From Gammaproteobacteria bacterium (GTDB lineage Bacteria; Pseudomonadota; Gammaproteobacteria; Eutrophobiales; Eutrophobiaceae), in the NCBI GenBank assembly GCA_965116495.1, contig OZ220696.1:2688001-2752000 (forward strand): 64,000 bases of DNA, read 5' to 3'. Of the stretch, positions 47,008-64,000 are shown in pieces (positions within the stretch are counted from its first letter, which is position 1; every line of letters starts with the position of its first letter). The notes beneath the pieces are model-generated. The model did no database searches. It was given only the letters and a program-made list of their open reading frames with translations, and was not told where the DNA came from. The position numbers were made by a program, and so were the translations under genes.

Positions 47008-49215
47008 ATGCCAAAACTTTTTTCAAGCAGGAATCGCGCCCCCCACCTCGGCCCCTATCCGCTGGAACGTCTGCCGCGATCCAACAGTGCGCCATCCACC
47101 GAAGGCCTGGCCGAGACACCGCCCTTGCGTTTACCCGCGCCGGAGAACCCCTACAGCATAGCCAATTCCTTCGCCCGGTTTTTTGAGCTCTACCGCAGGT
47201 TGCGCAACGGCGAGGTGCGCGCACAGGCAGCAAGCATCCCGTCGGACCCGGAAGAACGCCTGCGCCACCTGAAGAGCCTGAGTTATTTTCTCGATGCCAG
47301 CCAGGTTGGCGCCTGTCTTATCCCTGGGGACGCTCGGCTTGGCCGCACCGTGGGTATCGATTTCGATGTGGGCCCAGACAGTGCTTCCGGTGATCAGCAG
47401 TATATGTACTCGCCCTCAAAGAATGGGTCAGCAGACGAGGACAGCGCAACCGACTGCAGCGACCATGACTACGCGCTGGCCATATTGGTTGAATACACAC
47501 GCGATCCTTCACTGCAGGATCCACTGGCTGAGGAAATGCACGCCAGCCAGGCGGCCCGTGCAGCGGCCCGAGCGGCGGAGGTCGCCGTCGTCATTGCCAT
47601 GTACCTGCGGCGTCTTGGCTGGCCGGCCTGCGCACACATGGCGCACGCCGCTGACCTCGATACTCGATCCATCCTGCTCAATGCCGGTCTTGCGGAAATC
47701 AAAACTATCGGGGGCAGCAGGCACATAGCCAATCCTTTCCTGGGCGAACGTTTCGGTGCCGCTCTCGTATCGACCAGTCTCGAAATCGGCGTCGACCGGC
47801 CGCTGGCCGCCCGCGGACTGCTCTCCGGGCTTCTGGCGCGTCCTGCCTGGTGGTTGGGCGTTGGCGGCGCCCGTCCGGGATGGGGCCGGCTCAACGGCGC
47901 TCATAGAGGGCTTGCCGAAGGAATCTATCCTATGGAACGCATCAAGCGCGTCGATGCACCGACAACGCGTATCAATGCCGGTGATATCCAACGCCAACCA
48001 AAACGCGCCGAGTTCTTCACGCGCGCCGCGTTCGGTGACATCGGTTCCGGCGCGGAACGTGAAATGCGCCACGGCCGCTTCAGTGAAAAAGAACCCATCG
48101 GAGCGACCATGTCTGCAGTAGCTGCCGAGATGATTCCGCTGCAGTACGGAGAACCGGCAGAAGCCCATGCAAGCGGCAGTGACGACCCCAGGGCCAATGC
48201 AGTTCGCATCCGCGCGCTAAGCCATTTCCTCGGCGCCGATATCGTCGGCATAACGCCTGCCTACGAGCATACCTGGTATTCGCACCACATGGATGGCAAG
48301 CCCATCGAACCGTATCATAAGAACGCCATTGTACTGGTACTCGACCAAAGCCAGGAAACCATGTCGGGTTCCAGCGGCGACGACTGGATCAGCAATTCCC
48401 AGAGTTTCCGCGCCTACATGCGCGGCGCTTTTCTTGCCAGTGTCATTGCCGGACATATTCGAGGTTTGGGTTGGTCCGCTCGCTCGCATACCGTTTGGGA
48501 AGAAGACGTGCTGCACATTCCACTGTGTATCCACAGCGGCATCGGCGAACTCAGCCGCATCGGCGAAACAGTGCTCAATCCGTTCCTGGGGCCGCGTTTC
48601 AAGGACTCCATCGTCACCACCGACATGCCCCTGGCCGCCGACAAATATGTCGATTTCGGCTTGCAGGATTTTTGTAATCAGTGCAATAAATGCGCACGTG
48701 AGTGCCCCTGCGATGCCATCCCTTATGGCGACAAAATCCTGTTTAACGGCTATGAAATCTGGAAGCCGGACGTGCAGCGCTGTGCCAACTACCGCATCAC
48801 CAATCCGGCCGGCGCCGTTTGCGGCCGCTGTATGGCGACCTGTCCCTTCCAGGCGGAGAATACCCTGTTCAACCGGGCATTGCTGTGGGCGGGAATACAC
48901 TTGCCGTTCGCGCGGACCAGCCTGGCGAAATTCGATGACTGGCGCGGTAATGGTGAGATGAACCCGGTAAAAAAATGGTGGTGGGACCTGGAAGAGGTTG
49001 ACGGCAAACTGGCGCCGGCAAAGAAGGTGAATGCCCGGCCCTTATTCTTCAAACCCGGTGCGGCAAGGAAAAAGGAACACAAGGTCGCGGTATTTCCGCC
49101 GCACATGTCTCCGCCTGCCGACTGTAACGAGGCATTTCCCGTTGACCGAAAGGCAGGCCTTGTAGCTCAACAACAATGCGCGGCAGCGCTGCAACAGATG
49201 GAGAAAGAACAATGA
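47008..49215 (+). CDS. rdhA: Catabolic cobalamin-dependent reductive dehalogenase (NpRdhA/BhbA-type, no C-terminal reductase module)
   Basis: N-terminal HLGPYPLERL with a duplicated domain (YPMERIKRVD); SGDDWIS.SQS.RAYMRGA, GELSRIG, LNPFLGPRFK; two Fe-S motifs FCNQCNKCARECP and C...CGRCMATCP; no Tat signal. Confidence 0.88.
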   Translation: MPKLFSSRNRAPHLGPYPLERLPRSNSAPSTEGLAETPPLRLPAPENPYSIANSFARFFELYRRLRNGEVRAQAASIPSDPEERLRHLKSLSYFLDASQVGACLIPGDARLGRTVGIDFDVGPDSASGDQQYMYSPSKNGSADEDSATDCSDHDYALAILVEYTRDPSLQDPLAEEMHASQAARAAARAAEVAVVIAMYLRRLGWPACAHMAHAADLDTRSILLNAGLAEIKTIGGSRHIANPFLGERFGAALVSTSLEIGVDRPLAARGLLSGLLARPAWWLGVGGARPGWGRLNGAHRGLAEGIYPMERIKRVDAPTTRINAGDIQRQPKRAEFFTRAAFGDIGSGAEREMRHGRFSEKEPIGATMSAVAAEMIPLQYGEPAEAHASGSDDPRANAVRIRALSHFLGADIVGITPAYEHTWYSHHMDGKPIEPYHKNAIVLVLDQSQETMSGSSGDDWISNSQSFRAYMRGAFLASVIAGHIRGLGWSARSHTVWEEDVLHIPLCIHSGIGELSRIGETVLNPFLGPRFKDSIVTTDMPLAADKYVDFGLQDFCNQCNKCARECPCDAIPYGDKILFNGYEIWKPDVQRCANYRITNPAGAVCGRCMATCPFQAENTLFNRALLWAGIHLPFARTSLAKFDDWRGNGEMNPVKKWWWDLEEVDGKLAPAKKVNARPLFFKPGAARKKEHKVAVFPPHMSPPADCNEAFPVDRKAGLVAQQQCAAALQQMEKEQ

Positions 49216-53657: not shown

Positions 53658-53745
53658 AAATTTGGGACACCCATAAATTATGGATACCTTGAAACTATGG
53701 GTGTCCCAAATTTTCAATGTTCAATTTGTGGGTGTCCCAAATTTT
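53655..53745. repeat. REP-like inverted repeat with a third arm (TTTGGGACACCCATA family)
   Basis: Perfect 21-bp arms at 53655-53675 and 53696-53716, plus an extra TGGGTGTCCCAAATTTT at 53729-53745. Confidence 0.88.
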
Positions 53746-53770: not shown

Positions 53771-53798
53771 TTGAAATTCTGAATTCGTGTTCTAGAAT
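53771..53798 (+). promoter_or_regulatory. Candidate sigma70 promoter for the T4SS operon
   Basis: TTGAAA-N16-TAGAAT preceded by an A-tract. Confidence 0.45.
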
Positions 53799-53886: not shown

Positions 53887-56400
53887 ATGAACGGAGAACC
53901 GGTAAACAGCTACCACGGCGCGTTCAAACCCTTCAACGGGTTTGTGCTTTCGTATACAGGCTCCCTGGTTGGCGCCATTGAAATAGATGGCATCGATCCT
54001 GACGGGATGTCGATGAAAGACATGGAGGCTTTCTCCATTGTCATCAGGAACCTGCTGAATTTCCTGCCCCAGTCCATCGTTCTTCAGCAATATTACGTTC
54101 ATTACCGCGATCTGCGGATAACATTTTTACACCGCAACAACCCGGTATGTAACGCGTTAAATCAATACCGGGCTGATCACCTCAACAAGATGCGACTTTC
54201 AGGAGCAAAGTGCGTCCTGTTCGTTGAGATGTATCCCGATAACCAGGGCCAATCCAGTCTGTCATTGTTCATCCACCATTTGCTCCATTATCCGCGCAGC
54301 GCAATATCCAGGGACTACATCAAGCGTTTTATCCTGTTTGGACCGGCGCGTTCTGCTTCAAAAATCGCACTGGAAAAAACGTCGCTCGCCCTGGAAACAT
54401 TGATCCACGACATTATCAATTACTGTAGTGGACTGTTTCAGACCCGACAACTCAATCTCGATGAAACTTACCGGGTAATGAAATTCCTGGCAACGATGGA
54501 GGTGAAATACCTGCACTCCGACCTGCGATGCCCACAAATTATTGATTCCGACCTGACCGATGGACAATTGGCGTCTGTAACGATCAAGGGAATGGATCTA
54601 TTGCGGTTACACAACCTCTATAAAACCTACGTGCGCGTCATGTCGGTAAAGCAATTCAATTTTGACCGTTTCACTCCCGGCCTGTTTGCAAAAGGTGCGA
54701 TCAAGGCGTCCGGCAACTACGTGTTGACTACCCGTTACAAAGGAATGAGTGAGACGTCAAAAACCCTGTTTTTTTTCAATCGCAAAAAAGAACTGGAAAG
54801 GGAGACGATCACGTTCACGGATTTTATCAACGGGCTGGACGGCGGTACGGAAAATGACAGGGATATGAGAGTCTTCCGCCCTTCGCTGATAAGGAAATTT
54901 CAGGAGTTGGATGAAGCGGCGTCCCTGCAGGACGACCTGGGATTAGTAGCTACCCATGCGGTTGTTTTCGATACTGATGTTGACGGGCTGGAGAAGACGA
55001 CAGAACAACTGCAATCCGCCCTGCATCAGAACCAATTCAGTATCCTGTGGGAAACGGTGGCGCAGATAGACGTTTTCTTTGACCTGCAACCTTGCGCCGA
55101 TCATCGCGGCAGGTTTTTGCGGGACATACCACTGAACACATCTCAATTTTCTACACTGTCACTGTTTTATAAATCCGCTCAAGGCACAAAAATTGTGGAC
55201 GACCTCGGGAATGAAGAAGCACAATATATTTTTCTATCTTCTGACAATTCCCCTTATTATTTTTCGCCGTTCAACGGCGGGCGCGGTTTTCTGGTTGGTG
55301 TGGGGCCGGTTCGAAGCGGAAAATCGTTTTTGCGTACCTGCACAGGGATTCACTGGCCCAAATATGGTGGCTTCTACCGGGCAATCGATATCGATCCGGG
55401 TTCCGAGCCTATTGCCCATGCATTTGGTGCTGATGGCGGCATCGTGCGTTTCGACAGGGAGAACGATCGCGGCTTCAATTTCTTTTCACAAGCCGACGGG
55501 CCTGGGGACTTGGCTTTTATTTCACATTTAAATCAACAGCTCATGGCAATGATCGACACTAACGACTCTGAAGATCTGCGCTATCTTTCCGGCCCTGATC
55601 AACTGGCACTGGACAGGGCCGTGAAGCAGGTATTGGGATTACCGCCACACCTGCAAACTTTAACAACCCTGGTAAAACACTGCCCGGGTCCGGTACAAAG
55701 GAAATTAACCCGGTTCGTCGGTACGGGCGCCTATTCCCGACTGTTCGACGCGCAACATGACGCCATAGGAGCCATTGACAAGAAAGTAGCGATTTACAAC
55801 CTGGCGGGTATCAATGACGACGACATCGCAAAACCGCTGGTGATGGCAGAGATAGCCTACAGAGTATTGCGTTTCTATGAAAACCCCGAGTTCCGGTCCT
55901 GTCCGAAATGGCTCGACGTAGATGAATGTCACCACATCCTGGCCAATCCCAGACTGACCAAAACAATGCTGCTGGACAGGGTGCGTACCTGGGGGAAAAT
56001 GCTGGCCGGTATCGGCATGTGGACCCAATCCGGAATAGAACTTGGCAATATCGAAAACTGGGAAGCGCTGCGTAGCGCCGCCTCAACTTTTATATTTACG
56101 GCCGATCCTGAATTAAACAAAGACGCCTACCGATCAATATTCAATTTGAAAGATGGAGAAATGGAAACCATACAGGGGTTGATCCCGAAAAAGGAATTTT
56201 ACCTGATACAGAGGGATTTAAATGTCTCGAAAAAATGCATCCTGTCAGTCGAGCCGGAACAATACGTACTGTCAACGTCCAAACCGGCGGAACAAACGCT
56301 GTATTTCGACAATGTTGAATGTTACGGCTTTGATGCCGGCGTCAGGAAGACCGTGGAAGCGCTTGATAAAGGAGAGGGTCACAATGAAAAGACATTTTGA
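53887..56400 (+). CDS. virB4: Type IV secretion ATPase VirB4/TrbE
   Basis: Walker A GPVRSGKS, Walker B WLDVDECH; 837 aa; followed by other virB genes. Confidence 0.88.
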   Translation: MNGEPVNSYHGAFKPFNGFVLSYTGSLVGAIEIDGIDPDGMSMKDMEAFSIVIRNLLNFLPQSIVLQQYYVHYRDLRITFLHRNNPVCNALNQYRADHLNKMRLSGAKCVLFVEMYPDNQGQSSLSLFIHHLLHYPRSAISRDYIKRFILFGPARSASKIALEKTSLALETLIHDIINYCSGLFQTRQLNLDETYRVMKFLATMEVKYLHSDLRCPQIIDSDLTDGQLASVTIKGMDLLRLHNLYKTYVRVMSVKQFNFDRFTPGLFAKGAIKASGNYVLTTRYKGMSETSKTLFFFNRKKELERETITFTDFINGLDGGTENDRDMRVFRPSLIRKFQELDEAASLQDDLGLVATHAVVFDTDVDGLEKTTEQLQSALHQNQFSILWETVAQIDVFFDLQPCADHRGRFLRDIPLNTSQFSTLSLFYKSAQGTKIVDDLGNEEAQYIFLSSDNSPYYFSPFNGGRGFLVGVGPVRSGKSFLRTCTGIHWPKYGGFYRAIDIDPGSEPIAHAFGADGGIVRFDRENDRGFNFFSQADGPGDLAFISHLNQQLMAMIDTNDSEDLRYLSGPDQLALDRAVKQVLGLPPHLQTLTTLVKHCPGPVQRKLTRFVGTGAYSRLFDAQHDAIGAIDKKVAIYNLAGINDDDIAKPLVMAEIAYRVLRFYENPEFRSCPKWLDVDECHHILANPRLTKTMLLDRVRTWGKMLAGIGMWTQSGIELGNIENWEALRSAASTFIFTADPELNKDAYRSIFNLKDGEMETIQGLIPKKEFYLIQRDLNVSKKCILSVEPEQYVLSTSKPAEQTLYFDNVECYGFDAGVRKTVEALDKGEGHNEKTF

Positions 56401-57280
56401 TCCGTTGGAGTCCGGTTCACGCAGCGCTGACGGATGGCTTATGCGAATCAGTCTGTGGCTGCTTGGCATCTCTCTTATCACCGGGGTTCATGCTGCAGGG
56501 ATCCCAACGGTTGACGTTGGTGTAATAGCACAACAGATCCGCTCCTACCAGCAACAGTTAAGAGACTTTGAAACTCAACTGCAACAGGTGGGCCTCAACA
56601 GCGAACAGTTGACCATGCTCAACAGGCAGTTCAGTCAGACCCTGAAAGAATACGATGACTACCTGCGGCAGGTCAGGGGTTTACATCGGGTAATTTCTCG
56701 AAAAGACTGGAATGGTCTGTTCCAGACACTCAGAAATTATTACGGCACCAGCCCTTATTCCCACATAACAAAGGTCCAGGAGATCGGGAGCGCCGGCCGT
56801 CATGCTATCGACACACAGGTGGGTAAACTTTATACCGTACCGGCACAGGTTGACCAAGTGCGCCGTCAAATCGCAACAGTGGGAGTTGACCCTGAACCCT
56901 GGGTTATACAAGCGCAAAGGCAAAGAGCGCGCTATGAAGCTTACAGGGATCAGTTGGAACTGGCGAAAGACAGCAACCGGGAATTACTGGAACGTTATAG
57001 AAAAATCAGGATCACAAAAAATAATTTCGACCTTGGTGATAAAAGCGACCTGAATGCATTGCAAACGGTGGTAACAAGCAATTTTCATATTATCGATGAA
57101 CTGCAGGCCCTGAATAAAACCCAGAATCAGCGCCTGCTGCATACCAACCATGAGTATGTCCAGGCATTATCAAATGCAGAGGCACAACGACAAGCTGAAG
57201 CAGAACGACTGGAAAAAGTGGTAACCGGTGGAAAACCGTTGCGTTCCTTCCGTTGGAGTGATCTGAATATGACTGAATAG
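56384..57280 (+). CDS. VirB5/TrbJ-like protein
   Basis: Signal peptide then AGIPTVD and a Gln-rich coiled coil; position after virB4. Confidence 0.7.
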   Translation: MKRHFDPLESGSRSADGWLMRISLWLLGISLITGVHAAGIPTVDVGVIAQQIRSYQQQLRDFETQLQQVGLNSEQLTMLNRQFSQTLKEYDDYLRQVRGLHRVISRKDWNGLFQTLRNYYGTSPYSHITKVQEIGSAGRHAIDTQVGKLYTVPAQVDQVRRQIATVGVDPEPWVIQAQRQRARYEAYRDQLELAKDSNRELLERYRKIRITKNNFDLGDKSDLNALQTVVTSNFHIIDELQALNKTQNQRLLHTNHEYVQALSNAEAQRQAEAERLEKVVTGGKPLRSFRWSDLNMTE

Positions 57281-57287
57281 GCTTCTT

Positions 57288-57377
57288 GGGGACGGTCTTA
57301 AGTCCGTCCCCGGATGGGGTGGGAATGACGGGCTTATCAAGGGGAGAGACAGGACGCGCAAGAGGCAGGAATGACGG
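57288..57377. repeat. REP-like remnants between the virB5-like and virB6-like genes
   Basis: GGGGACGG-N8-CCGTCCCC hairpin and two GGAATGACGGG motifs like the end of the 6585 element. Confidence 0.5.
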
Positions 57378-57417
57378 GTAGCCGGGAAAAACAGGATTAT
57401 TTAAGGAGGATTAAAAC

Positions 57418-58404
57418 ATGATGCCACGAGGGTTAACAGCCGCCGCGTTGTTGTCGTTGCTGCCGTTCCGGGTATTGGCGGCTCCGATTGATCCTGCCGG
57501 TTTCCTGGGAGAGTTTTTTAACAAGGCAAGCAGGTTGACCGATCAGCTTATCGGTGTGTCAACTGAATTGTCCCGGTTCTCAGAGCTTGAATGGACCACA
57601 TTCGCTGTATTTGCCCTGGTAATTGTCCTGATCAAGTGGACCACAGGCGCAGCCGCAATAAAAGACGTAATTTTTGTCGTCCTGATGATTCTTATCGCGC
57701 AATCTTTGATGCAATCTTACGATCAGGTCCTGGCTGTCCTCTGGGAAATCACCACCGTTCTGTCTGATGATATCAACCGGAACACCTACCAGGCCTTGAA
57801 CCTGGAAGCAACGGGAATCAAATCAACCGGTGTCTTTCTGCTGGATATGATTAACCACATCATGGAACGTATCACATTTAAACCCGTGCCCGCTAAATCC
57901 GGGCTCTTTTCCATGTTCACCAGTTTCGCCATCAGCATCCGCGATGGGATCTTCATGATCATATTTTTTCTCGTGCTGATTGCTGTTTTCTGCACCTCCT
58001 GGGTCATATCGGTTGTCGGACTGTGGAGCCTGCTACTCGGCAAAGTGTTGGGGCCGATCTTTATTCCATTCCTTATATTCAAACGCGCAAACTCGTATTT
58101 CGACAGTTGGGTGAACTTCATGTTGGGTTCCGTGGCCTATTTCATAGTCGCGCAGATTAACGTCGCATTTACAACCTTGATTATTATCGAGCTGTTTAAT
58201 TCGATCATTATTGCAGGAGAAATATTGACAGTAACTCCGGATGATTTTCTTAAACTGCTCAACTATTCCGGATTGCTGTTCGTGGCGATATTCGCGATGT
58301 TCAGGACCGACCGGGTAGTGAGCGATTTAATCCATGGAGGTGTGAGCGCATCGGGAGCCATCAGCCACGCGGCTTCCATGTTGTCCACAAGGTTGTTGAG
58401 ATGA
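57418..58404 (+). CDS. VirB6/TrbL-like polytopic membrane protein
   Basis: Multiple TM segments, LGPIFIPFLIF...YFDSWVNF motif. Confidence 0.78.
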   Translation: MMPRGLTAAALLSLLPFRVLAAPIDPAGFLGEFFNKASRLTDQLIGVSTELSRFSELEWTTFAVFALVIVLIKWTTGAAAIKDVIFVVLMILIAQSLMQSYDQVLAVLWEITTVLSDDINRNTYQALNLEATGIKSTGVFLLDMINHIMERITFKPVPAKSGLFSMFTSFAISIRDGIFMIIFFLVLIAVFCTSWVISVVGLWSLLLGKVLGPIFIPFLIFKRANSYFDSWVNFMLGSVAYFIVAQINVAFTTLIIIELFNSIIIAGEILTVTPDDFLKLLNYSGLLFVAIFAMFRTDRVVSDLIHGGVSASGAISHAASMLSTRLLR

Positions 58405-58414
58405 GACCAGGGAG

Positions 58415-59149
58415 ATGACGGCAAAGACAATAGGGACCGTACCGGATGGGTTGGTGGAACAACTTAATCCCGACAACATCCCGGGACTGGTGGTTACCAA
58501 CAACAGGCTGTTGGTCAGCAACCTCGTCTTATTGCTGGCGTTTATCTGTGCCGTCAGTTACGGCATTGCAGTGACTTACATGGCAAAGAACAATGAAAAA
58601 CTCATCTATGTCAAACTGGCGCCGGATGGTACCTGGTTTATCGATACCCAATTCGCGCATAAAGACGAAACGGACTTTTTCCCTGCCACTATTGATCACC
58701 TGTTGGGCAGTTATGTAACGCGCCGATTTCGCGAAGACCCAGCGACCATAAGGAATGACTATGGTTTTGCACTGGTGTTGATGGACACGGGATTGGCGAA
58801 GTACTTTAAGTCGCCCTCGGGTTTCGATGCCGCGAGCAAAGCAGCCAGGATCAGAGCTTGCCCAAGCTGCAGTATCAAGGAAGTTGAGGTAAGGAACATT
58901 TACCACTTCGACATAGATCGCCTGGCCGGCGGTAATCCCGATGACACCACTTACAGGACCAACGTTTACATCAATGAGATGCTCCGGTCGACCACGGACA
59001 ACACGATACTGAACACCAGGAGGGCTATTATCACACTGCGCTGGCGCCTCACCTCCAAACCGACACTATCCAAAGAAAGAAAGGTACTTATGGCCAACCC
59101 TATCGGACTGAAAATTATTGAGGAGAAAGTACTCGATGACCCGGCTTAG
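58415..59149 (+). CDS. VirB8/TrbF-like protein
   Basis: Single N-terminal TM, YVTRRF, C-terminal NPIGLKI. Confidence 0.78.
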   Translation: MTAKTIGTVPDGLVEQLNPDNIPGLVVTNNRLLVSNLVLLLAFICAVSYGIAVTYMAKNNEKLIYVKLAPDGTWFIDTQFAHKDETDFFPATIDHLLGSYVTRRFREDPATIRNDYGFALVLMDTGLAKYFKSPSGFDAASKAARIRACPSCSIKEVEVRNIYHFDIDRLAGGNPDDTTYRTNVYINEMLRSTTDNTILNTRRAIITLRWRLTSKPTLSKERKVLMANPIGLKIIEEKVLDDPA

Positions 59150-59960
59150 ATATATTTTTTTACTGACTGTCATCACTATGAACGGCTATGCCGAAGGAGA
59201 GCAATGCCGTCTTATCAATTACGAAAAACATAAATTCGTTCGCATCAAATCCAGGTTGCATCACGGCACCCACATTGAACTGCCGGAGATGTTGATAGCC
59301 AGGCCGGTCACGGGAAACAGGGATTTGTGGGATGTGGAAGGCGAAAACAGACACATCTTCGTCAAACCGAATGACCCAGGGACAAGAGAAGGTGGTAGTA
59401 CGACCATTACCGCCGTCTCCCAAAGTAACCGGTCCTACCATTTCCTGGTGGAACGTTCGGATAACGACTTCGACCTGTGCGTGGTCATTACCCATGACAG
59501 CGGGTTTTTGCCTGAAGGCGCATTCTCAGGTTTTACCCGGCGCAACGGCGAGCAGACAGCATTGTACCAGGAACAACTGGACACGCTTCAGATCCGGTTG
59601 AACGAGGAAGAGCAGGCAACAGCAGAGAAGGTGAATGCCGCGATAGATGAGTACAGGACACAATTGTTTACCGGCTACCGCTGGAAAGGCGGGCGTTCTC
59701 GTTATGGGAAGGATCTGGTAACCGATGTCTACGATGACGGCAGGTTTACCTATATTCGCGTACGGCACAACCTGGATGGCGTCATGTCGCTGTTTGCCGA
59801 CAATAACGGAAAAGAGCAGTTCATCGACTACAAATATGACGAAGACAAACGGGTATACATTGTGACCGGAATTTACAACCGTATCTACATGAAAGCGGAT
59901 GAGAAAACGCAGATCGTCATCACCCGACGCGGGAGTTCCCGAACACAACGGGATTTATAG
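59136..59960 (+). CDS. VirB9/TrbG outer-membrane core protein
   Basis: Signal peptide, THIELPE, IFVKP, VYDDGRFTYI. Confidence 0.82.
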   Translation: MTRLRYIFLLTVITMNGYAEGEQCRLINYEKHKFVRIKSRLHHGTHIELPEMLIARPVTGNRDLWDVEGENRHIFVKPNDPGTREGGSTTITAVSQSNRSYHFLVERSDNDFDLCVVITHDSGFLPEGAFSGFTRRNGEQTALYQEQLDTLQIRLNEEEQATAEKVNAAIDEYRTQLFTGYRWKGGRSRYGKDLVTDVYDDGRFTYIRVRHNLDGVMSLFADNNGKEQFIDYKYDEDKRVYIVTGIYNRIYMKADEKTQIVITRRGSSRTQRDL

Positions 59961-59963
59961 ACG

Positions 59964-61262
59964 ATGACGACAAATACCAACGATATCAACCAGGTCGAAG
60001 AACAGCCGGCGACCTATAACAAGAATTTCCAGATCATGCTGATTGCAGGGCTGGTGTTTGTCGTTGTAGTCATGGTTTACGCGTCCTTGTTCCAATCCGG
60101 TCCCGGGGACGGGAAAATAGAAGAGCATGTACAGCGGGAAATCAGGAAACAAACGCTATCTGATCCGGAGCAGGAATTCCGCGAACAGATAAAAAGTCAG
60201 GAACAACGCCTGCAAAAACAAAGAGCGCAAGATATCTCGGAGCAACGGGAATATGTCGATGAAATAACCGACGAATTGTTGCAAAACAATGAACAGGTAT
60301 TGCATGAGATGTTGACCGGGACAAAATCACCCGTGGAAGTCTGGAAAGAGTCCGAGACTGTCCGGGTGCGTCAATCAAGACAGGCTGAGTTCAATTTTGA
60401 GATTTTCGGCGGCATGACGGATACACTGCAGCAGCCGACGGACAGGCTGGATGACGGGTTCCTGCAACAGGAGCAGACAATCCTGGCAGAACTGCAACGA
60501 CGCGCTGACCGGCAGCCGAATCTGTCTGTTATATCTACCGATTATGTTCCGGGGGCAGATCCGTTATCGCAGTTGCTGACCCGGGAAGACCAGGCGCCTG
60601 AAACAGCGCGCCATTTTAATCTGGCAGGTTATCCGGAATCTGATCTCAGCCATCCGCCGGGTGATGAATTCAAGCTGTTGTCTATCGGTTCGATCATGCA
60701 GGCAAAGCTGGACCAGAAAGTCATTTCCGATTACGCCGGACCGTATCGGTGCAGGATTGAACAGAACGTTATGGATGTTACGCAGAAACACGTGTTAATC
60801 CCGGCCGGCTCCCTGTGTACGGGTCAAGTGTTGCAGACCGGCTCCGCACATCCCAATCGCATTATCAATAACCGGATGGCTTTGTCCATGCGCTGGATAA
60901 TCAGACCGGACGGCACCAAGATCAAATTTATCAGTCAAGCCCTCGACCACGAGGGTATTGGCGCGCTGAAAGGAGAAACCGACTATCACTTCCTGGCCCG
61001 CTTCAGCGGCGCGGCGGCTTTCGCCTTGTTATCCAGCGAAACTTCCAGGGCGGACTACAGTAGCGGCGGCTCCGGAACGACTTTTGAGTCAGATGTGGGT
61101 CATGCCTTGCGCGACGCCGGTGCTGACCTGACTGCGCCGTATGCCGGCCTGGTCCCGACACAGACTTTGAATTATGGCCAGAAATTACGTCTGTTCGTCT
61201 CTGAGGACATGTATATCTCGCCCTGGAGAGACGTGTATCAACGCTTGCTGAGTCTGAGGTAA
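59964..61262 (+). CDS. VirB10/TrbI core protein
   Basis: N-terminal TM and coiled coil; C-terminal GSIMQAKL...ISDYAG, VLIPAGS, PTQTLNYGQKLRLFVSED. Confidence 0.85.
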   Translation: MTTNTNDINQVEEQPATYNKNFQIMLIAGLVFVVVVMVYASLFQSGPGDGKIEEHVQREIRKQTLSDPEQEFREQIKSQEQRLQKQRAQDISEQREYVDEITDELLQNNEQVLHEMLTGTKSPVEVWKESETVRVRQSRQAEFNFEIFGGMTDTLQQPTDRLDDGFLQQEQTILAELQRRADRQPNLSVISTDYVPGADPLSQLLTREDQAPETARHFNLAGYPESDLSHPPGDEFKLLSIGSIMQAKLDQKVISDYAGPYRCRIEQNVMDVTQKHVLIPAGSLCTGQVLQTGSAHPNRIINNRMALSMRWIIRPDGTKIKFISQALDHEGIGALKGETDYHFLARFSGAAAFALLSSETSRADYSSGGSGTTFESDVGHALRDAGADLTAPYAGLVPTQTLNYGQKLRLFVSEDMYISPWRDVYQRLLSLR

Positions 61263-62188
61263 TGAGTACTGCAATGAAAAAAGTTGTGCCGCGACGCGCA
61301 ACCATGCCTTTCTGGACGGTTACTTTTGCCTGTTGCCTCCTGGTTTTATTCAGTGGGTGTTCATGGATTCGGACACTGGAAGAAAATATAAGATTTTCAC
61401 TTCAACGTAGTGATTCACTGACAACCGCCTTGCCCACTGTTGAGGTACCGGTACGAATGCTCTTTCCAGACGGGACACATACGGTAGAGGGGGCCATCAG
61501 CTATATGCTGGAACCGCATTCATACCGTCCGGCAATTCGAAATACAGCTGGTGATGTTATCGCTGAACGTACATTCATCAATAATTTCAACAATGATCCT
61601 GTGCCTTTACACGTCGCGATAGAACGTCTGATGGGGCGGGACGGCCAAATCATACTGGACAGGAACAGGAAGCTGTATGCGTTTCGCGCAAGACAACCGG
61701 ATGAGGCAAGTATTGCCTTTTCTGATTTAACTACTACGACCGTCGCGATTACAAGTAATAAATCAGAGAATTACACAGCAACACTTCAGGAACAAGACGG
61801 TGGACTTGTTCATGAGCGTGAAGACAACATGTCGCCTGTTACTGAACAGGTGGCAAAAAACACGGATGATTACTTTTCCGAAAAATCGAACGGTGAAAGA
61901 ATACCCGCTGAAACAGGTGAATTCTGTTTTTCCATTCATTTCAGGAATCAGTCCATGCTATCCGCTTCAGTTCAGGATTATTTCTTACGCTGCGGCTTTG
62001 ACGAGGTGTCCTGGAGTCTCGGTGAACCTGGCAGATATGCAGATTACCGCCTCCTTCAGAGCATCAACCTGCCTTTGCCCGAACGCCAGCAGGACCTGAT
62101 CGAATTCCTGCAATCCCGTTTCGGCATTAAAACCCTAATTCATGATAACAACCGGGTTGAATTCTACGATGAAAATAGTTCATTTTAA
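61262..62188 (+). CDS. Lipoprotein, PilL/TcpQ-like type IVb pilus accessory protein
   Basis: Lipobox FSGC; TVEGAISYMLEP..Y and VSW.....DYRL patterns; precedes a secretin. Confidence 0.5.
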   Translation: MSTAMKKVVPRRATMPFWTVTFACCLLVLFSGCSWIRTLEENIRFSLQRSDSLTTALPTVEVPVRMLFPDGTHTVEGAISYMLEPHSYRPAIRNTAGDVIAERTFINNFNNDPVPLHVAIERLMGRDGQIILDRNRKLYAFRARQPDEASIAFSDLTTTTVAITSNKSENYTATLQEQDGGLVHEREDNMSPVTEQVAKNTDDYFSEKSNGERIPAETGEFCFSIHFRNQSMLSASVQDYFLRCGFDEVSWSLGEPGRYADYRLLQSINLPLPERQQDLIEFLQSRFGIKTLIHDNNRVEFYDENSSF

Positions 62189-63752
62189 AAAATCGGGCTG
62201 CATTTCCTGTGAATGGTTGGGCAATTTGTTCACGACATGCAGGCTTTTGATTGTATTGCCCGTGCTGGTGACGATGGCCTGTAGTGAAAATATAAAACAG
62301 CGAGAAAAAGAAATCAGTGATGCCAGGGAACGTCACAGACAGATCCTGGAAGAACAACAGACAGTACGGGCCATCAACACCCGGGCCAAACGCGTTGACG
62401 TGCCGAAGGAAAAAGCCTGGTTTTACCGATCTTACCGGGCCACATACAAAAACCAGGGACTGCGGGAGACCCTCGAACGATTGACGCCGGGGTATCCCAT
62501 TGCTTACGCGCTACCCGAAAAATACAATCCCAGGATCAGTTCCTCCCCCGATGCCGCCACCGTGGAAGACCACCTGAATGCCATTTCTCTGCAAGCCAAT
62601 GTCGGCTACGAATTCCACCAGGGCATCTTGCTGATCACGCCGATGACCACGAAAAAGTATGAAGTCCCACTGTACGGAGGTGGCAACAACATCATCAATG
62701 TCAGCAGCAACAACCTGGGAAGCGCTCAGAACAAAGCCTCTGGGTTTGAAAACAACGTCACCAGCCAGCTGTCCGCGGAGAACGATATTCACCAGTTGGT
62801 CAATACTGTCCTGGGCATTCAATACTGTGAACATGGCGCTGATGAAACGGGAGACGAGACAGGTACACTGGAAACCTACACCTATAACGACAAGGAATGT
62901 TACAGCATCAGTTCGACCGGCAACCTGCTTTCCATCACGGCCAGACCTCAACGGATCGTCATGTTTGACGAAGCCTACGAGAAGTGGCTGCAAACTGTCA
63001 CCAGACAGGCCAATATTAAAATCACGGTCGTGCGACTGGACGTAACCGACCTGGCGCAGCAACACGTTGACCTGTCCCTGATTCGCAATGCCAGCATCGC
63101 TGCCAATATCAGTAACCTGACCCAGGATCTGACCAGCAGTGAACTGAATGCCGGCGGCGGTGTATTCAGCCTGAAAATCGATGACCCTGGCAGCCAGTGG
63201 AACACGTCGGAAATAATATTAAGGGCACTGGCCCAGGTGGGCAATCTTTCAATTGACGACACAAAAGAAATCCTGGTTTACAACAATCGCCTGGTAACCA
63301 TCCGCAATTACCGCGTGTACCGCTATGTTGAACAAACCAGCATCCAACAAACCGACTCCGGTGGTACAAGCCTATCCACACCCACCGTGGAAATCGGCGA
63401 ACTGGAAACCGGGCAAGCCATTAATATCCTCCCTACCCTGACCGATGATTTGATTGCGCTGCATATCGTGATAAACGAGGCAAAAATTGATTCGCTCGAT
63501 ACCTATGACATCGCCGGAACTTCCGGTGTTTTGCCGACAAGTTCCGGTAATGACAACATTTTCGATGTCACCATAGAAGACGGCGAAACTGTACTGCTCG
63601 CATCGACCCACCGGGAAGAAGTCGAAGTCAAGACCGACCGCTCCGGCTTGTTGCCGGTCTGGCCGTTCAACCGGTTGACTGGAAATTCCGAATCCGGCGG
63701 CAAGCGACTGACCCAGACGCTGTTTTTAATCCAGGCAGCCTTCAAATTATGA
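62169..63752 (+). CDS. Lipoprotein secretin (PilN/BfpB/TcpC-like)
   Basis: Lipobox TMAC, N3-like STGNLLSITARP, ILRALAQVGNLS, GQAINILPT, IEDGETVLLA, TLFLIQA. Confidence 0.75.
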   Translation: MKIVHFKKSGCISCEWLGNLFTTCRLLIVLPVLVTMACSENIKQREKEISDARERHRQILEEQQTVRAINTRAKRVDVPKEKAWFYRSYRATYKNQGLRETLERLTPGYPIAYALPEKYNPRISSSPDAATVEDHLNAISLQANVGYEFHQGILLITPMTTKKYEVPLYGGGNNIINVSSNNLGSAQNKASGFENNVTSQLSAENDIHQLVNTVLGIQYCEHGADETGDETGTLETYTYNDKECYSISSTGNLLSITARPQRIVMFDEAYEKWLQTVTRQANIKITVVRLDVTDLAQQHVDLSLIRNASIAANISNLTQDLTSSELNAGGGVFSLKIDDPGSQWNTSEIILRALAQVGNLSIDDTKEILVYNNRLVTIRNYRVYRYVEQTSIQQTDSGGTSLSTPTVEIGELETGQAINILPTLTDDLIALHIVINEAKIDSLDTYDIAGTSGVLPTSSGNDNIFDVTIEDGETVLLASTHREEVEVKTDRSGLLPVWPFNRLTGNSESGGKRLTQTLFLIQAAFKL

Positions 63753-64000
63753 TTGAGACAATCAACATCGGCGCACGCGAAATCGACCTGTGCATCAACG
63801 CAGAAAGCCAGACCCTGCCGGAGGAACGGCGCGCCTGGTTGTATGTGAATAAACAACTCAGCGCGGTAAAGAAAAAGTATTACCTGGAATCCGAAGGATT
63901 CATTTTTCTTGATGAAGGAAAGGCCATCTCCATTGCCGCGCAGATTGTCAAATGGATACATACGGACATACGCCCGGGCCGGCACTACATTTTTTTGCCA
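63749..64000 (+). CDS. Hypothetical protein, 3'-truncated (position of PilO-like genes)
   Basis: ATGA overlap with the secretin stop; frame MIETINIGAREIDL... is open to the window end. Confidence 0.6.
   Translation, partial: MIETINIGAREIDLCINAESQTLPEERRAWLYVNKQLSAVKKKYYLESEGFIFLDEGKAISIAAQIVKWIHTDIRPGRHYIFLP

Follow-up and report, generated by a model that had tools for sequence, protein, structure and literature searches.

A genus-wide chromosomal type IV secretion system without a common relaxase shares an operon with a candidate type IVb pilus of leaderless pilins in Eutrophobiaceae

Introduction

Type IVb pili and type IV secretion systems (T4SSs) occur side by side on plasmids. In IncI2 TP114 and the R64-type type IVb pili (PilL-PilV), a pilus with the major pilin PilS and the minor adhesin PilV stands beside the T4SS; the pilins are made with a type III signal sequence that is removed by a dedicated peptidase, and they serve plasmid transfer, according to PMC9045228. 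In this study, we analysed a window of 64,000 nucleotides (nt) from a Gammaproteobacteria bacterium of the family Eutrophobiaceae (assembly GCA_965116495.1, contig OZ220696.1, genome positions 2,688,001-2,752,000), in which an operon starting at window position 53887 runs from VirB-type T4SS genes into type IVb pilus genes. The source genome is 4.34 Mb, in one contig, and 99.5% complete. Compared with TP114 and R64, the pilins encoded here have no leader, and there was no peptidase in the locus, no shufflon seen and no relaxase.

The same gene order is present on two Vibrio plasmids, p23023 (NC_010112; conjugative, MOBC and MPF_T by MOB-suite) and pVv_GCU-01-3 (NZ_CP134787). Both carry two small virB genes and virB4-B5-B6-B8-B9-B10, followed by genes for a PilL-domain protein, a lipoprotein, a secretin, an ATPase, a platform protein and pilins, with virB11 and the coupling-protein gene apart from the operon; the homologous proteins show 18-43% identity. 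They differ in being plasmid-borne, with MobC and a lytic transglycosylase, in having two genes at the lipoprotein position, and in major pilins that carry class III leaders, whereas the system of the genus is chromosomal, split in three and fixed. The virB-then-pil order thus has a precedent on these MOBC plasmids; what is new is that the system is fixed, has no relaxase and comes with leaderless pilins. A further Vibrio plasmid, pYJ016, was rejected as a precedent, since PMC3033894 describes it as F-like.

MOBless protein-secreting T4SSs are chromosomal, keep the coupling protein and lack the relaxase, as here, and T4SSs with a coupling protein and no relaxase typically secrete proteins (PMC4027160). 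The present system differs from them in that its VirB4 and coupling-protein lineage is closest to MOBC plasmids and in that it is joined to a type IVb operon. The MOBless systems include the Xanthomonas antibacterial T4SS with its VirB7-N0 protein and the scattered system of Rickettsiales. A review, PMC12857230, speaks in general terms of T4SSs forming hybrid assemblies with type IV pili. A literature search of titles and abstract openings gave no description of such a T4SS-pilus system in sponge symbionts, of leaderless type IV pilins, or of VirB10/PilL/secretin coupling. We report here that the T4SS is chromosomal, present throughout the genus and without a common relaxase among the families scanned, and we judged, with confidence somewhat above even, that it is a contact-dependent protein injector whose type IVb pilus holds the target.

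Results

The virB genes run into a type IVb pilus module

The ORFs (open reading frames) proposed by a first-pass annotation of the window were confirmed by ORF and family scans, all on the + strand with tight or overlapping junctions. Gaps in the window ranged from -47 to +10 nt, except for 137 nt between virB5 and virB6. The first gene, virB4 (53887..56400), encodes an ATPase of 837 amino acids (aa) which matched TIGR00929 at E 1e-38, below the curated cut-off, with the Walker A motif intact at residue 473. It is followed by a VirB5-like T4SS minor pilin (56384..57280; PF07996 E 0.002, below cut-off), which matched a Vibrio plasmid protein in the VirB5 position by blastp at E 7e-19, and whose start is probably 56384 or slightly downstream in a frame open from 56222. 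VirB6 (57418..58404; PF04610 E 9e-8), VirB8 (58415..59149; PF04335 E 1e-5), VirB9 (59118..59960; PF03524 E 2e-18) and VirB10 (59964..61262; PF03743 E 2e-24) were all over cut-off. Next come a two-domain lipoprotein of 308 aa (61262..62188; lipobox Cys33), with a PilL-like domain 1 and a pilus-linked domain 2, and a PilN/MshL-like lipoprotein secretin (62142..63752; Cys47) with matches to PF00263 (8e-6), TIGR02520 (PilN, 5e-13) and TIGR02519 (MshL, 1e-13).

The operon continues 6.3 kb beyond the window, still on the + strand, to form a unit of about 16.4 kb with 16 genes. The window end cuts the PilO-position protein (63749..64000; 390 aa, genome 2,751,749-2,752,921), after which lies the PilP-position protein (228 aa, genome 2,752,902-2,753,588); both were named by position, and family scans gave no match for either. 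They are followed by a pilus assembly ATPase of the PilB/GspE family (genome 2,753,588-2,755,198; PF00437 E 2e-41) and a platform protein of the GspF family with a weak match (genome 2,755,182-2,756,213; PF00482 E 0.004). Three leaderless pilin-like genes come next: a major pilin of 147 aa (genome 2,756,232-2,756,675), assigned by fold model and profile homology, a pilin-like protein of 148 aa with an N-terminal hydrophobic helix (genome 2,756,679-2,757,125), and a PilV-like protein of 213 aa (genome 2,757,153-2,757,794). The last gene encodes a conserved 101-aa protein (genome 2,757,994-2,758,299), assigned no further, and directly after it stands a strong 12-pair terminator (genome 2,758,321-2,758,348). 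The cluster thus holds the assembly ATPase, the platform protein and the lipoprotein secretin together, as the type IVb pilus class (R64/TCP/BFP) requires.

Upstream of virB4, a sigma-70-like promoter candidate (53771..53798, +) matched 10 of 12 consensus positions, and this is a consensus match only, such sites numbering 20 in 18 kb against 18.4 in shuffled sequence. With this site upstream and the terminator after the last gene, a single transcription unit, as the first-pass annotation had proposed, appears likely. Of 23 related loci fetched, 18 were of sufficient length to contain the order virB4-B5-B6-B8-B9-B10-lipoprotein-secretin, and every one of these 18 had it; because of this recurrence it cannot be put down to chance.

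Some non-coding features of the locus were also observed. The sequence preceding the 101-aa gene (L001:16795-16993, shortly past the window end) looks conserved among relatives, with similar spurious translations, and is possibly a regulatory leader. Short palindromic repeats occur at window positions 53658-53745 and 57281-57320 and at genome 2,207,200-2,207,280, these intergenic regions having 130, 24 and 91 blastn matches in the genome, respectively. No Rfam family matched in 18 kb of the locus.

The remaining T4SS genes are encoded at two other chromosomal loci

The absence of virB2, virB3, virB11 and a small virB7 from the operon, noted in the first-pass annotation, was confirmed for the operon itself. 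It does not hold for the genome, where virB2, virB3 and virB11 are all encoded at other loci. virB3 and then virB2 lie between gshA and recA (genome 2,280,859-2,280,236) with matches to PF05101 (4e-6) and PF04956 (1e-5, just under cut-off). A VirB11-like ATPase (genome 2,207,065-2,206,067; TIGR02788 2e-51, under cut-off) is encoded next to argH, and divergently from it the coupling protein (genome 2,207,336-2,209,048; PF02534/PF12696 1e-5), then a TrbM-family gene (PF07424 E 8e-25). The virB2-virB3, virB11 and coupling-protein loci were each single-copy by tblastn. Thus the pilin, the assembly ATPase, VirB2, VirB3, VirB11 and the coupling protein were all located, and the T4SS set comprises VirB2-B6, VirB8-B11 and the coupling protein in three chromosomal places. 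As a side observation, the TrbM-family gene (genome 2,209,073-2,209,941; L028:12073-12941, -) and an acidic 132-aa gene without a family stand beside the coupling-protein gene in 11 of 13 loci fetched.

The arrangement of virB3-virB2 differs among relatives. In 4 of 23 related loci the pair lies directly before virB4, and the RpoB tree and the VirB4 tree each have a split that places these four genomes together on one side. Seven other virB3 loci were fetched; gshA precedes in all seven and recA follows in six. In the source genome the operon is flanked by cinA-thpR on one side and by an N6 methyltransferase gene on the other. The usual order is cinA-recA, and a single inversion between thpR|recA and virB2|virB4 would explain the layout of the source genome.

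It had been proposed that this T4SS works without VirB2, VirB3 and VirB11, the type IVb pilus taking the place of the VirB2 pilus. The operon of the source genome, taken alone, fits this proposal. However, VirB3 was found in 21 of 23 genomes of the genus (the two misses being genomes 77% and 83% complete), VirB2 lay beside VirB3 in all 11 related loci examined with 76-91% identity, VirB11 is likewise conserved elsewhere, and virB3-virB2 adjoin virB4 in the four loci above. Because virB2, virB3 and virB11 are present elsewhere in the genome, a replacement of VirB2 by the pilus is not supported, and we regard the proposal as scarcely credible. A PF00437 scan of the genome gave five ATPases over cut-off: VirB11, the pilus ATPase and three others as large as GspE/PilB. 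With this query, a separate protein of PilT size was not seen.

The system is fixed in the genus and inherited with its host

Both VirB4 and the major pilin were found in 23 of 23 genomes of the genus and in none of 103 other genomes of the family. The VirB11-like ATPase was also present in 23 of 23, and so was the coupling protein, whose 72-96% identity puts it with the best-conserved parts of the system. The three pilin-like genes occurred in all 15 relatives whose pil end was fetched. Trees of VirB4 and RpoB from 21 genomes (G037 and G040, without a whole gene, were omitted) had 16 of 18 splits in common, and the distance correlation with the host was 0.86 for VirB4, 0.89 for VirB9 and 0.94 for VirB10. 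The median ratio of nonsynonymous to synonymous substitution rates (dN/dS) against the source genome was 0.08-0.13 for virB4, B5, B6, B8, B9, B10 and the secretin gene, and 0.056 for rpoB (13-19 pairs per gene with dS below 2). The system is single-copy and inherited with its host under purifying selection, and since the host and VirB4 trees agree, the locus itself is not moving.

An ordinary integrated conjugative element, or its decaying remnant, would also bring virB and pil genes into a chromosome. The pil genes do lie downstream in the order of known conjugative plasmids (Vibrio p23023 and pVv_GCU-01-3), which is half of what had been named beforehand as counting against the proposed machine, and the G+C content (49-51%) is below the genome mean of 54.7%. 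On the other hand, they are not accompanied downstream by a relaxase, virB11 or coupling-protein gene, no integrase, relaxase or replication gene was found among the flanking ORFs examined, the frames are open with dN/dS near 0.1 across the genus, and the genes sit at three fixed loci, making up a fixed chromosomal trait. Such an element or remnant is very improbable.

In three loci (L007, L012 and L034), the pil module is divergent, with a secretin at 51-52% and a PilO-position protein at 36% identity, against about 80% for the adjacent virB genes, which suggests that the module was swapped by recombination.

The T4SS is related to MOBC plasmids and has no common relaxase among the families scanned

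Searches of plasmids gave 408 records for VirB4 (best 31-34%) and 1,378 for the coupling protein (best 29-34%), and the best matches of the two included several of the same plasmids. On two of these, the Eleftheria terrae and Marinobacter nanhaiticus plasmids, the coupling-protein gene is followed divergently by MobC (NF041423 E 3e-18 and 1e-19) and VirB11. The closest outside locus, L070, one of 11 metagenome loci, encodes a VirB4 of 54%, a coupling protein of 47% and a VirB11 of 44% identity in a single block of trbM, coupling protein, mobC, virB11, virB3, virB2 and virB4. In the VirB4 tree, where root placement within the genus is weak (support 0.78), it is a member of the group that is sister to the genus.

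L070, L076-L078 and the two plasmids share the VirB4, coupling-protein and VirB11 lineage of the genus and the order virB3-virB2-virB4, and in this group a PilL/N0-like gene follows virB10, as here. They differ in that L070, L076 and both plasmids keep mobC between the coupling-protein gene and virB11, and in that no secretin/pilin cluster was found in the sequenced stretches examined, the L070 block ending after virB4. Descent of the T4SS from a MOBC conjugative plasmid or element is likely from these comparisons, and they point strongly to an ancestral order of trbM, coupling protein, a putative oriT, then mobC-virB11-virB3-virB2-virB4...virB10-pil, from which mobC would have been lost and the block split. 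With a relaxase-bearing outgroup, the deletion point and a later inversion all visible, this would be a well-resolved case of a conjugative system becoming a host organelle.

In the genus, MobC, PF07514 and PF08751 were each absent from 23 of 23 genomes, and PF03389 and PF03432 occurred sporadically, in 1 and 5 of 23. These Pfam families stand for MOB classes, PF03389 for MOBQ and PF03432 for MOBP. A purpose-built MobC profile matched its two training loci only and found nothing at E<=1 in six frames of the source genome or in 20 genus loci. No relaxase family scanned was therefore common to the genus. The virB11/coupling-protein pair was kept in 10 of 12 other genus genomes fetched, being split in one and on different contigs in one, and all were without mobC. 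The gap between the two genes was about 145-385 bp in nine genus intergenic regions and 1.5 and 2.9 kb in two more, where MobC had no match either, and by eye this region has no conserved block beyond its ends. Compared with a MOBC element, the system has no MobC beside the coupling protein, is fixed in 23 of 23 genomes with agreeing trees, and has no flanking integrase seen; compared with MOBless protein-secreting systems, it likewise has a coupling protein and no relaxase among the families scanned.

The system might still move DNA, either mobilisable elements with a relaxase supplied in trans or pieces of the chromosome by way of an unrecognised nicking protein, with the pilus stabilising mating pairs. 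It keeps all the mating-pair genes, a plasmid-type coupling protein and the TrbM-family gene, sporadic MOBP and MOBQ relaxases exist in the genus as counted above, and on TP114 a type IV pilus aids mating-pair stabilisation (PMC9045228). Against this stand the lack of a common relaxase among those scanned, a short intergenic region too small for mobC and without a conserved inner block, and the agreement of the VirB4 and host trees. We consider DNA transfer unlikely. As a side observation, a small separate island at genome 1,143,700-1,149,300, which adjoins an ankyrin-repeat gene, holds an integrase-like gene and a MOBP-like relaxase that appears to be split.

The major pilin has no leader peptide

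The model of the 147-aa pilin showed a 51-residue N-terminal helix and a small alpha/beta head, with a predicted local distance difference test (pLDDT) score of 86. The best Foldseek hit was TcpA of cholera (probability 0.89, E 0.08, template-modelling (TM) score 0.54), with none at E<=0.001; Atlas neighbours carry PilS and Bundlin (0.91-0.93). A pilin profile search gave 28 matches, and among the 19 examined, seven had a basic leader ending in Gly and several matched N_methyl or, weakly, PilS. A PDB sequence search with the pilin profile gave 0 hits. Aligned to the leader-bearing homologues, Met1 of the pilin corresponds to mature position +1, and position +5 is Ala, not Glu. PMC6668835 and PMC9045228 take a class III leader, with its peptidase, as characteristic of type IV pilins, and the Vibrio plasmid major pilins have leaders; the major pilin here has neither the class III signal peptide nor the Glu +5 of type IVb pilins.

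An in-frame stop lies 5-8 codons upstream of the major pilin gene in 12 of 16 loci. Measured from stop to stop, the frame has 151-155 aa in 17 of 23 genomes, and the best 120 of 172 homologues are all 145-148 aa long and begin with M/V-N-Q. Because of these upstream stops, short frames and uniform lengths, a missed start does not account for the absent leader. We also rejected read-through into the pilin gene from the platform gene: 14-24 nt separate the two, and in 4 of 16 loci they are not in the same frame. The other two genes behave alike: a stop lies one codon upstream of the 148-aa gene in 14 of 16 loci, and within 2-9 codons of the 213-aa gene in 10 of 16. The 213-aa protein resembles PilV N-termini, and we infer that the 148-aa protein is a pilin. 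The one prepilin peptidase of the genome lies elsewhere, and leader-bearing pilin-like proteins that it could serve are present in the genome.

These results showed that the major pilin has no leader; the pilus likely functions as one of type IVb would, although its pilin lacks this defining feature, and there is moderate reason to think that the pilus is assembled without processing. If such a widespread pilin family, starting at mature +1 and without Glu5, is borne out, cleavage and methylation would be dispensable, and its members would escape leader-based finders.

A two-domain lipoprotein may link the secretin to the T4SS core

The 308-aa lipoprotein has two conserved domains (residues about 57-145 and about 222-305) and a variable linker. 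Residues 59-141 of domain 1 matched the PilL-domain protein of the Vibrio plasmid (blastp E 8e-6), which itself hits TIGR03748 at 1e-8. Of 9 outside loci tested, 8 also had a domain 1 match in the gene that follows virB10, and plasmids lacking pil genes were among them (three of these loci were in the training set, and the L070 block ends too early). Domain 2, by contrast, travels with the pilus module and was not found in these outside loci. Weak fold matches of the lipoprotein were to DotD, BfpB/G, Xanthomonas VirB7 and secretin N0 domains (E 0.2-4). An element related to the short palindromic repeats described above is seemingly translated inside the linker of some relatives.

In the genomes G053 and G049, second systems were found in which domain 2 is placed at the C-terminus of VirB10 (E 2e-18 and 3e-4). 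These are canonical VirB/VirD4 sets. Although their VirB4 is only 22-24% identical to that of the operon, the pilus module joined to them is the same (ATPase 51-58% identical), and its pilins again start at a hydrophobic helix. They lie at G053:C4:958,000-978,000 (L104, L105) and G049:C1:4,171,000-4,192,500 (L107, L108). None of the five relaxase scans gave a hit in G053. Repeated subtilase, adhesin and small gene pairs flank its locus, and an integrase gene and genes that look cas-like flank that of G049.

Since the pilus-linked domain has been fused to T4SS parts in two different ways, a physical coupling of the two machines is suggested, and there is moderate reason to think that the secretin is tethered to the T4SS core. 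The idea of a joint T4SS-pilus machine, already raised in the first-pass annotation, is strengthened by the domain fusions. More tentatively, and at less than even confidence, we would describe a physically joined machine in which the secretin is tethered to the core by the lipoprotein here and by the VirB10 fusion in the second lineage, the filament consists of never-leadered pilins, the pilus module has paired with two unrelated T4SS lineages, and one such pairing is the colonisation apparatus of a symbiont genus. With the VirB10 fusion, the coupling of T4SS and secretin can be put to a direct structural test.

A repeat protein is a candidate adhesin

In 9 of 15 relatives, a secreted Cys/Trp-repeat protein of about 440-620 aa is encoded between the 213-aa and 101-aa genes. 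The source genome has its homologue elsewhere (551 aa, 7 repeats, genome 4,219,195-4,217,540, -), and further copies lie near both second systems. The protein, which varies in repeat number and C-terminus (also in L034-L036 and L038-L043), is likely a pilus-associated adhesin. Its repeats look thrombospondin-like by eye; this identity was rejected, as no Pfam thrombospondin family matched any of 6 copies and no Pfam or PDB family was found, a PDB sequence search giving 0 hits.

Such a protein would suit a system in which both modules serve attachment or DNA release and uptake only, with no protein injection, the VirB2/VirB5 pilus and the type IVb pilus acting as adhesins or the channel moving naked DNA in or out, and so would the position of virB3-virB2 before recA and of virB4 after cinA. 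However, the coupling protein, conserved as given above, would be needless for pure adhesion, and a single inversion accounts for the recA/cinA neighbourhood, which four loci lack. We therefore hold a purely adhesive or DNA-exchanging role to be distinctly improbable.

Discussion

We propose the following mode of action for a contact-dependent protein injector. The T4SS would have descended from a MOBC element by deletion of mobC and splitting of the block, and through one inversion virB3-virB2 would have come to lie before recA, with virB4 behind cinA-thpR. The pilins may enter the inner membrane by their uncleaved N-terminal helix, which starts at mature +1, and as they would be inserted in this way, no prepilin peptidase would be required. 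The ATPase and the platform protein could then assemble a thin pilus that passes through the lipoprotein secretin and carries at its tip the PilV-like protein and the secreted Cys/Trp-repeat adhesin. The secretin would be kept beside the outer-membrane core of the T4SS by the two-domain lipoprotein, which may also take the place of VirB7. Finally, the coupling protein would pass proteins on to the VirB channel, which would deliver them into cells of the host or into bacteria nearby. For protein delivery overall, we put our confidence a little beyond the midpoint. If the system is a protein injector, it is a concrete candidate for the means by which an uncultured symbiont genus handles its host or its neighbours.

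Several points weigh against this reading. VirB1 and a small VirB7 were not found. The fold matches of the pilin are weak, as are those of the lipoprotein, whose model had a pLDDT of 57 and a best fold E of 0.23, and when profiles of the 148-aa and 213-aa proteins were set against single Vibrio proteins encoded at the corresponding positions, neither gave a match. The relaxase scans covered five families, MOBV (PF01076) and PF13814 not among them, and a relaxase of a further family may be present; the fragment in the integrase-bearing island, separate from the operon, is a weak, apparently split match. The secretin and VirB6 follow the host tree less well than the other proteins (0.58 and 0.61), and two genomes (G040 and G047) have a divergent pil module with a secretin at 51-52%. 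Most related records are metagenome-assembled genomes of Gammaproteobacteria, and the style of their bin names suggests that the genus may live in sponges. Unlike the Xanthomonas antibacterial T4SS, the source genome has no XVIPCD effectors by scan (PF20410, 0 matches at E<=0.1); its four ankyrin-repeat ORFs were not linked to the system, and no substrate was identified. Some relaxase-less loci are decaying (PMC4027160), which is disfavoured here because dN/dS is low across the genus.

Outside the operon, the window encodes at 47008-49215 a 735-aa protein with two Fe-S (iron-sulphur) cluster-type cysteine motifs, beside three glutathione-transferase-like genes and a TonB-dependent receptor gene; it looks like a reductive dehalogenase.

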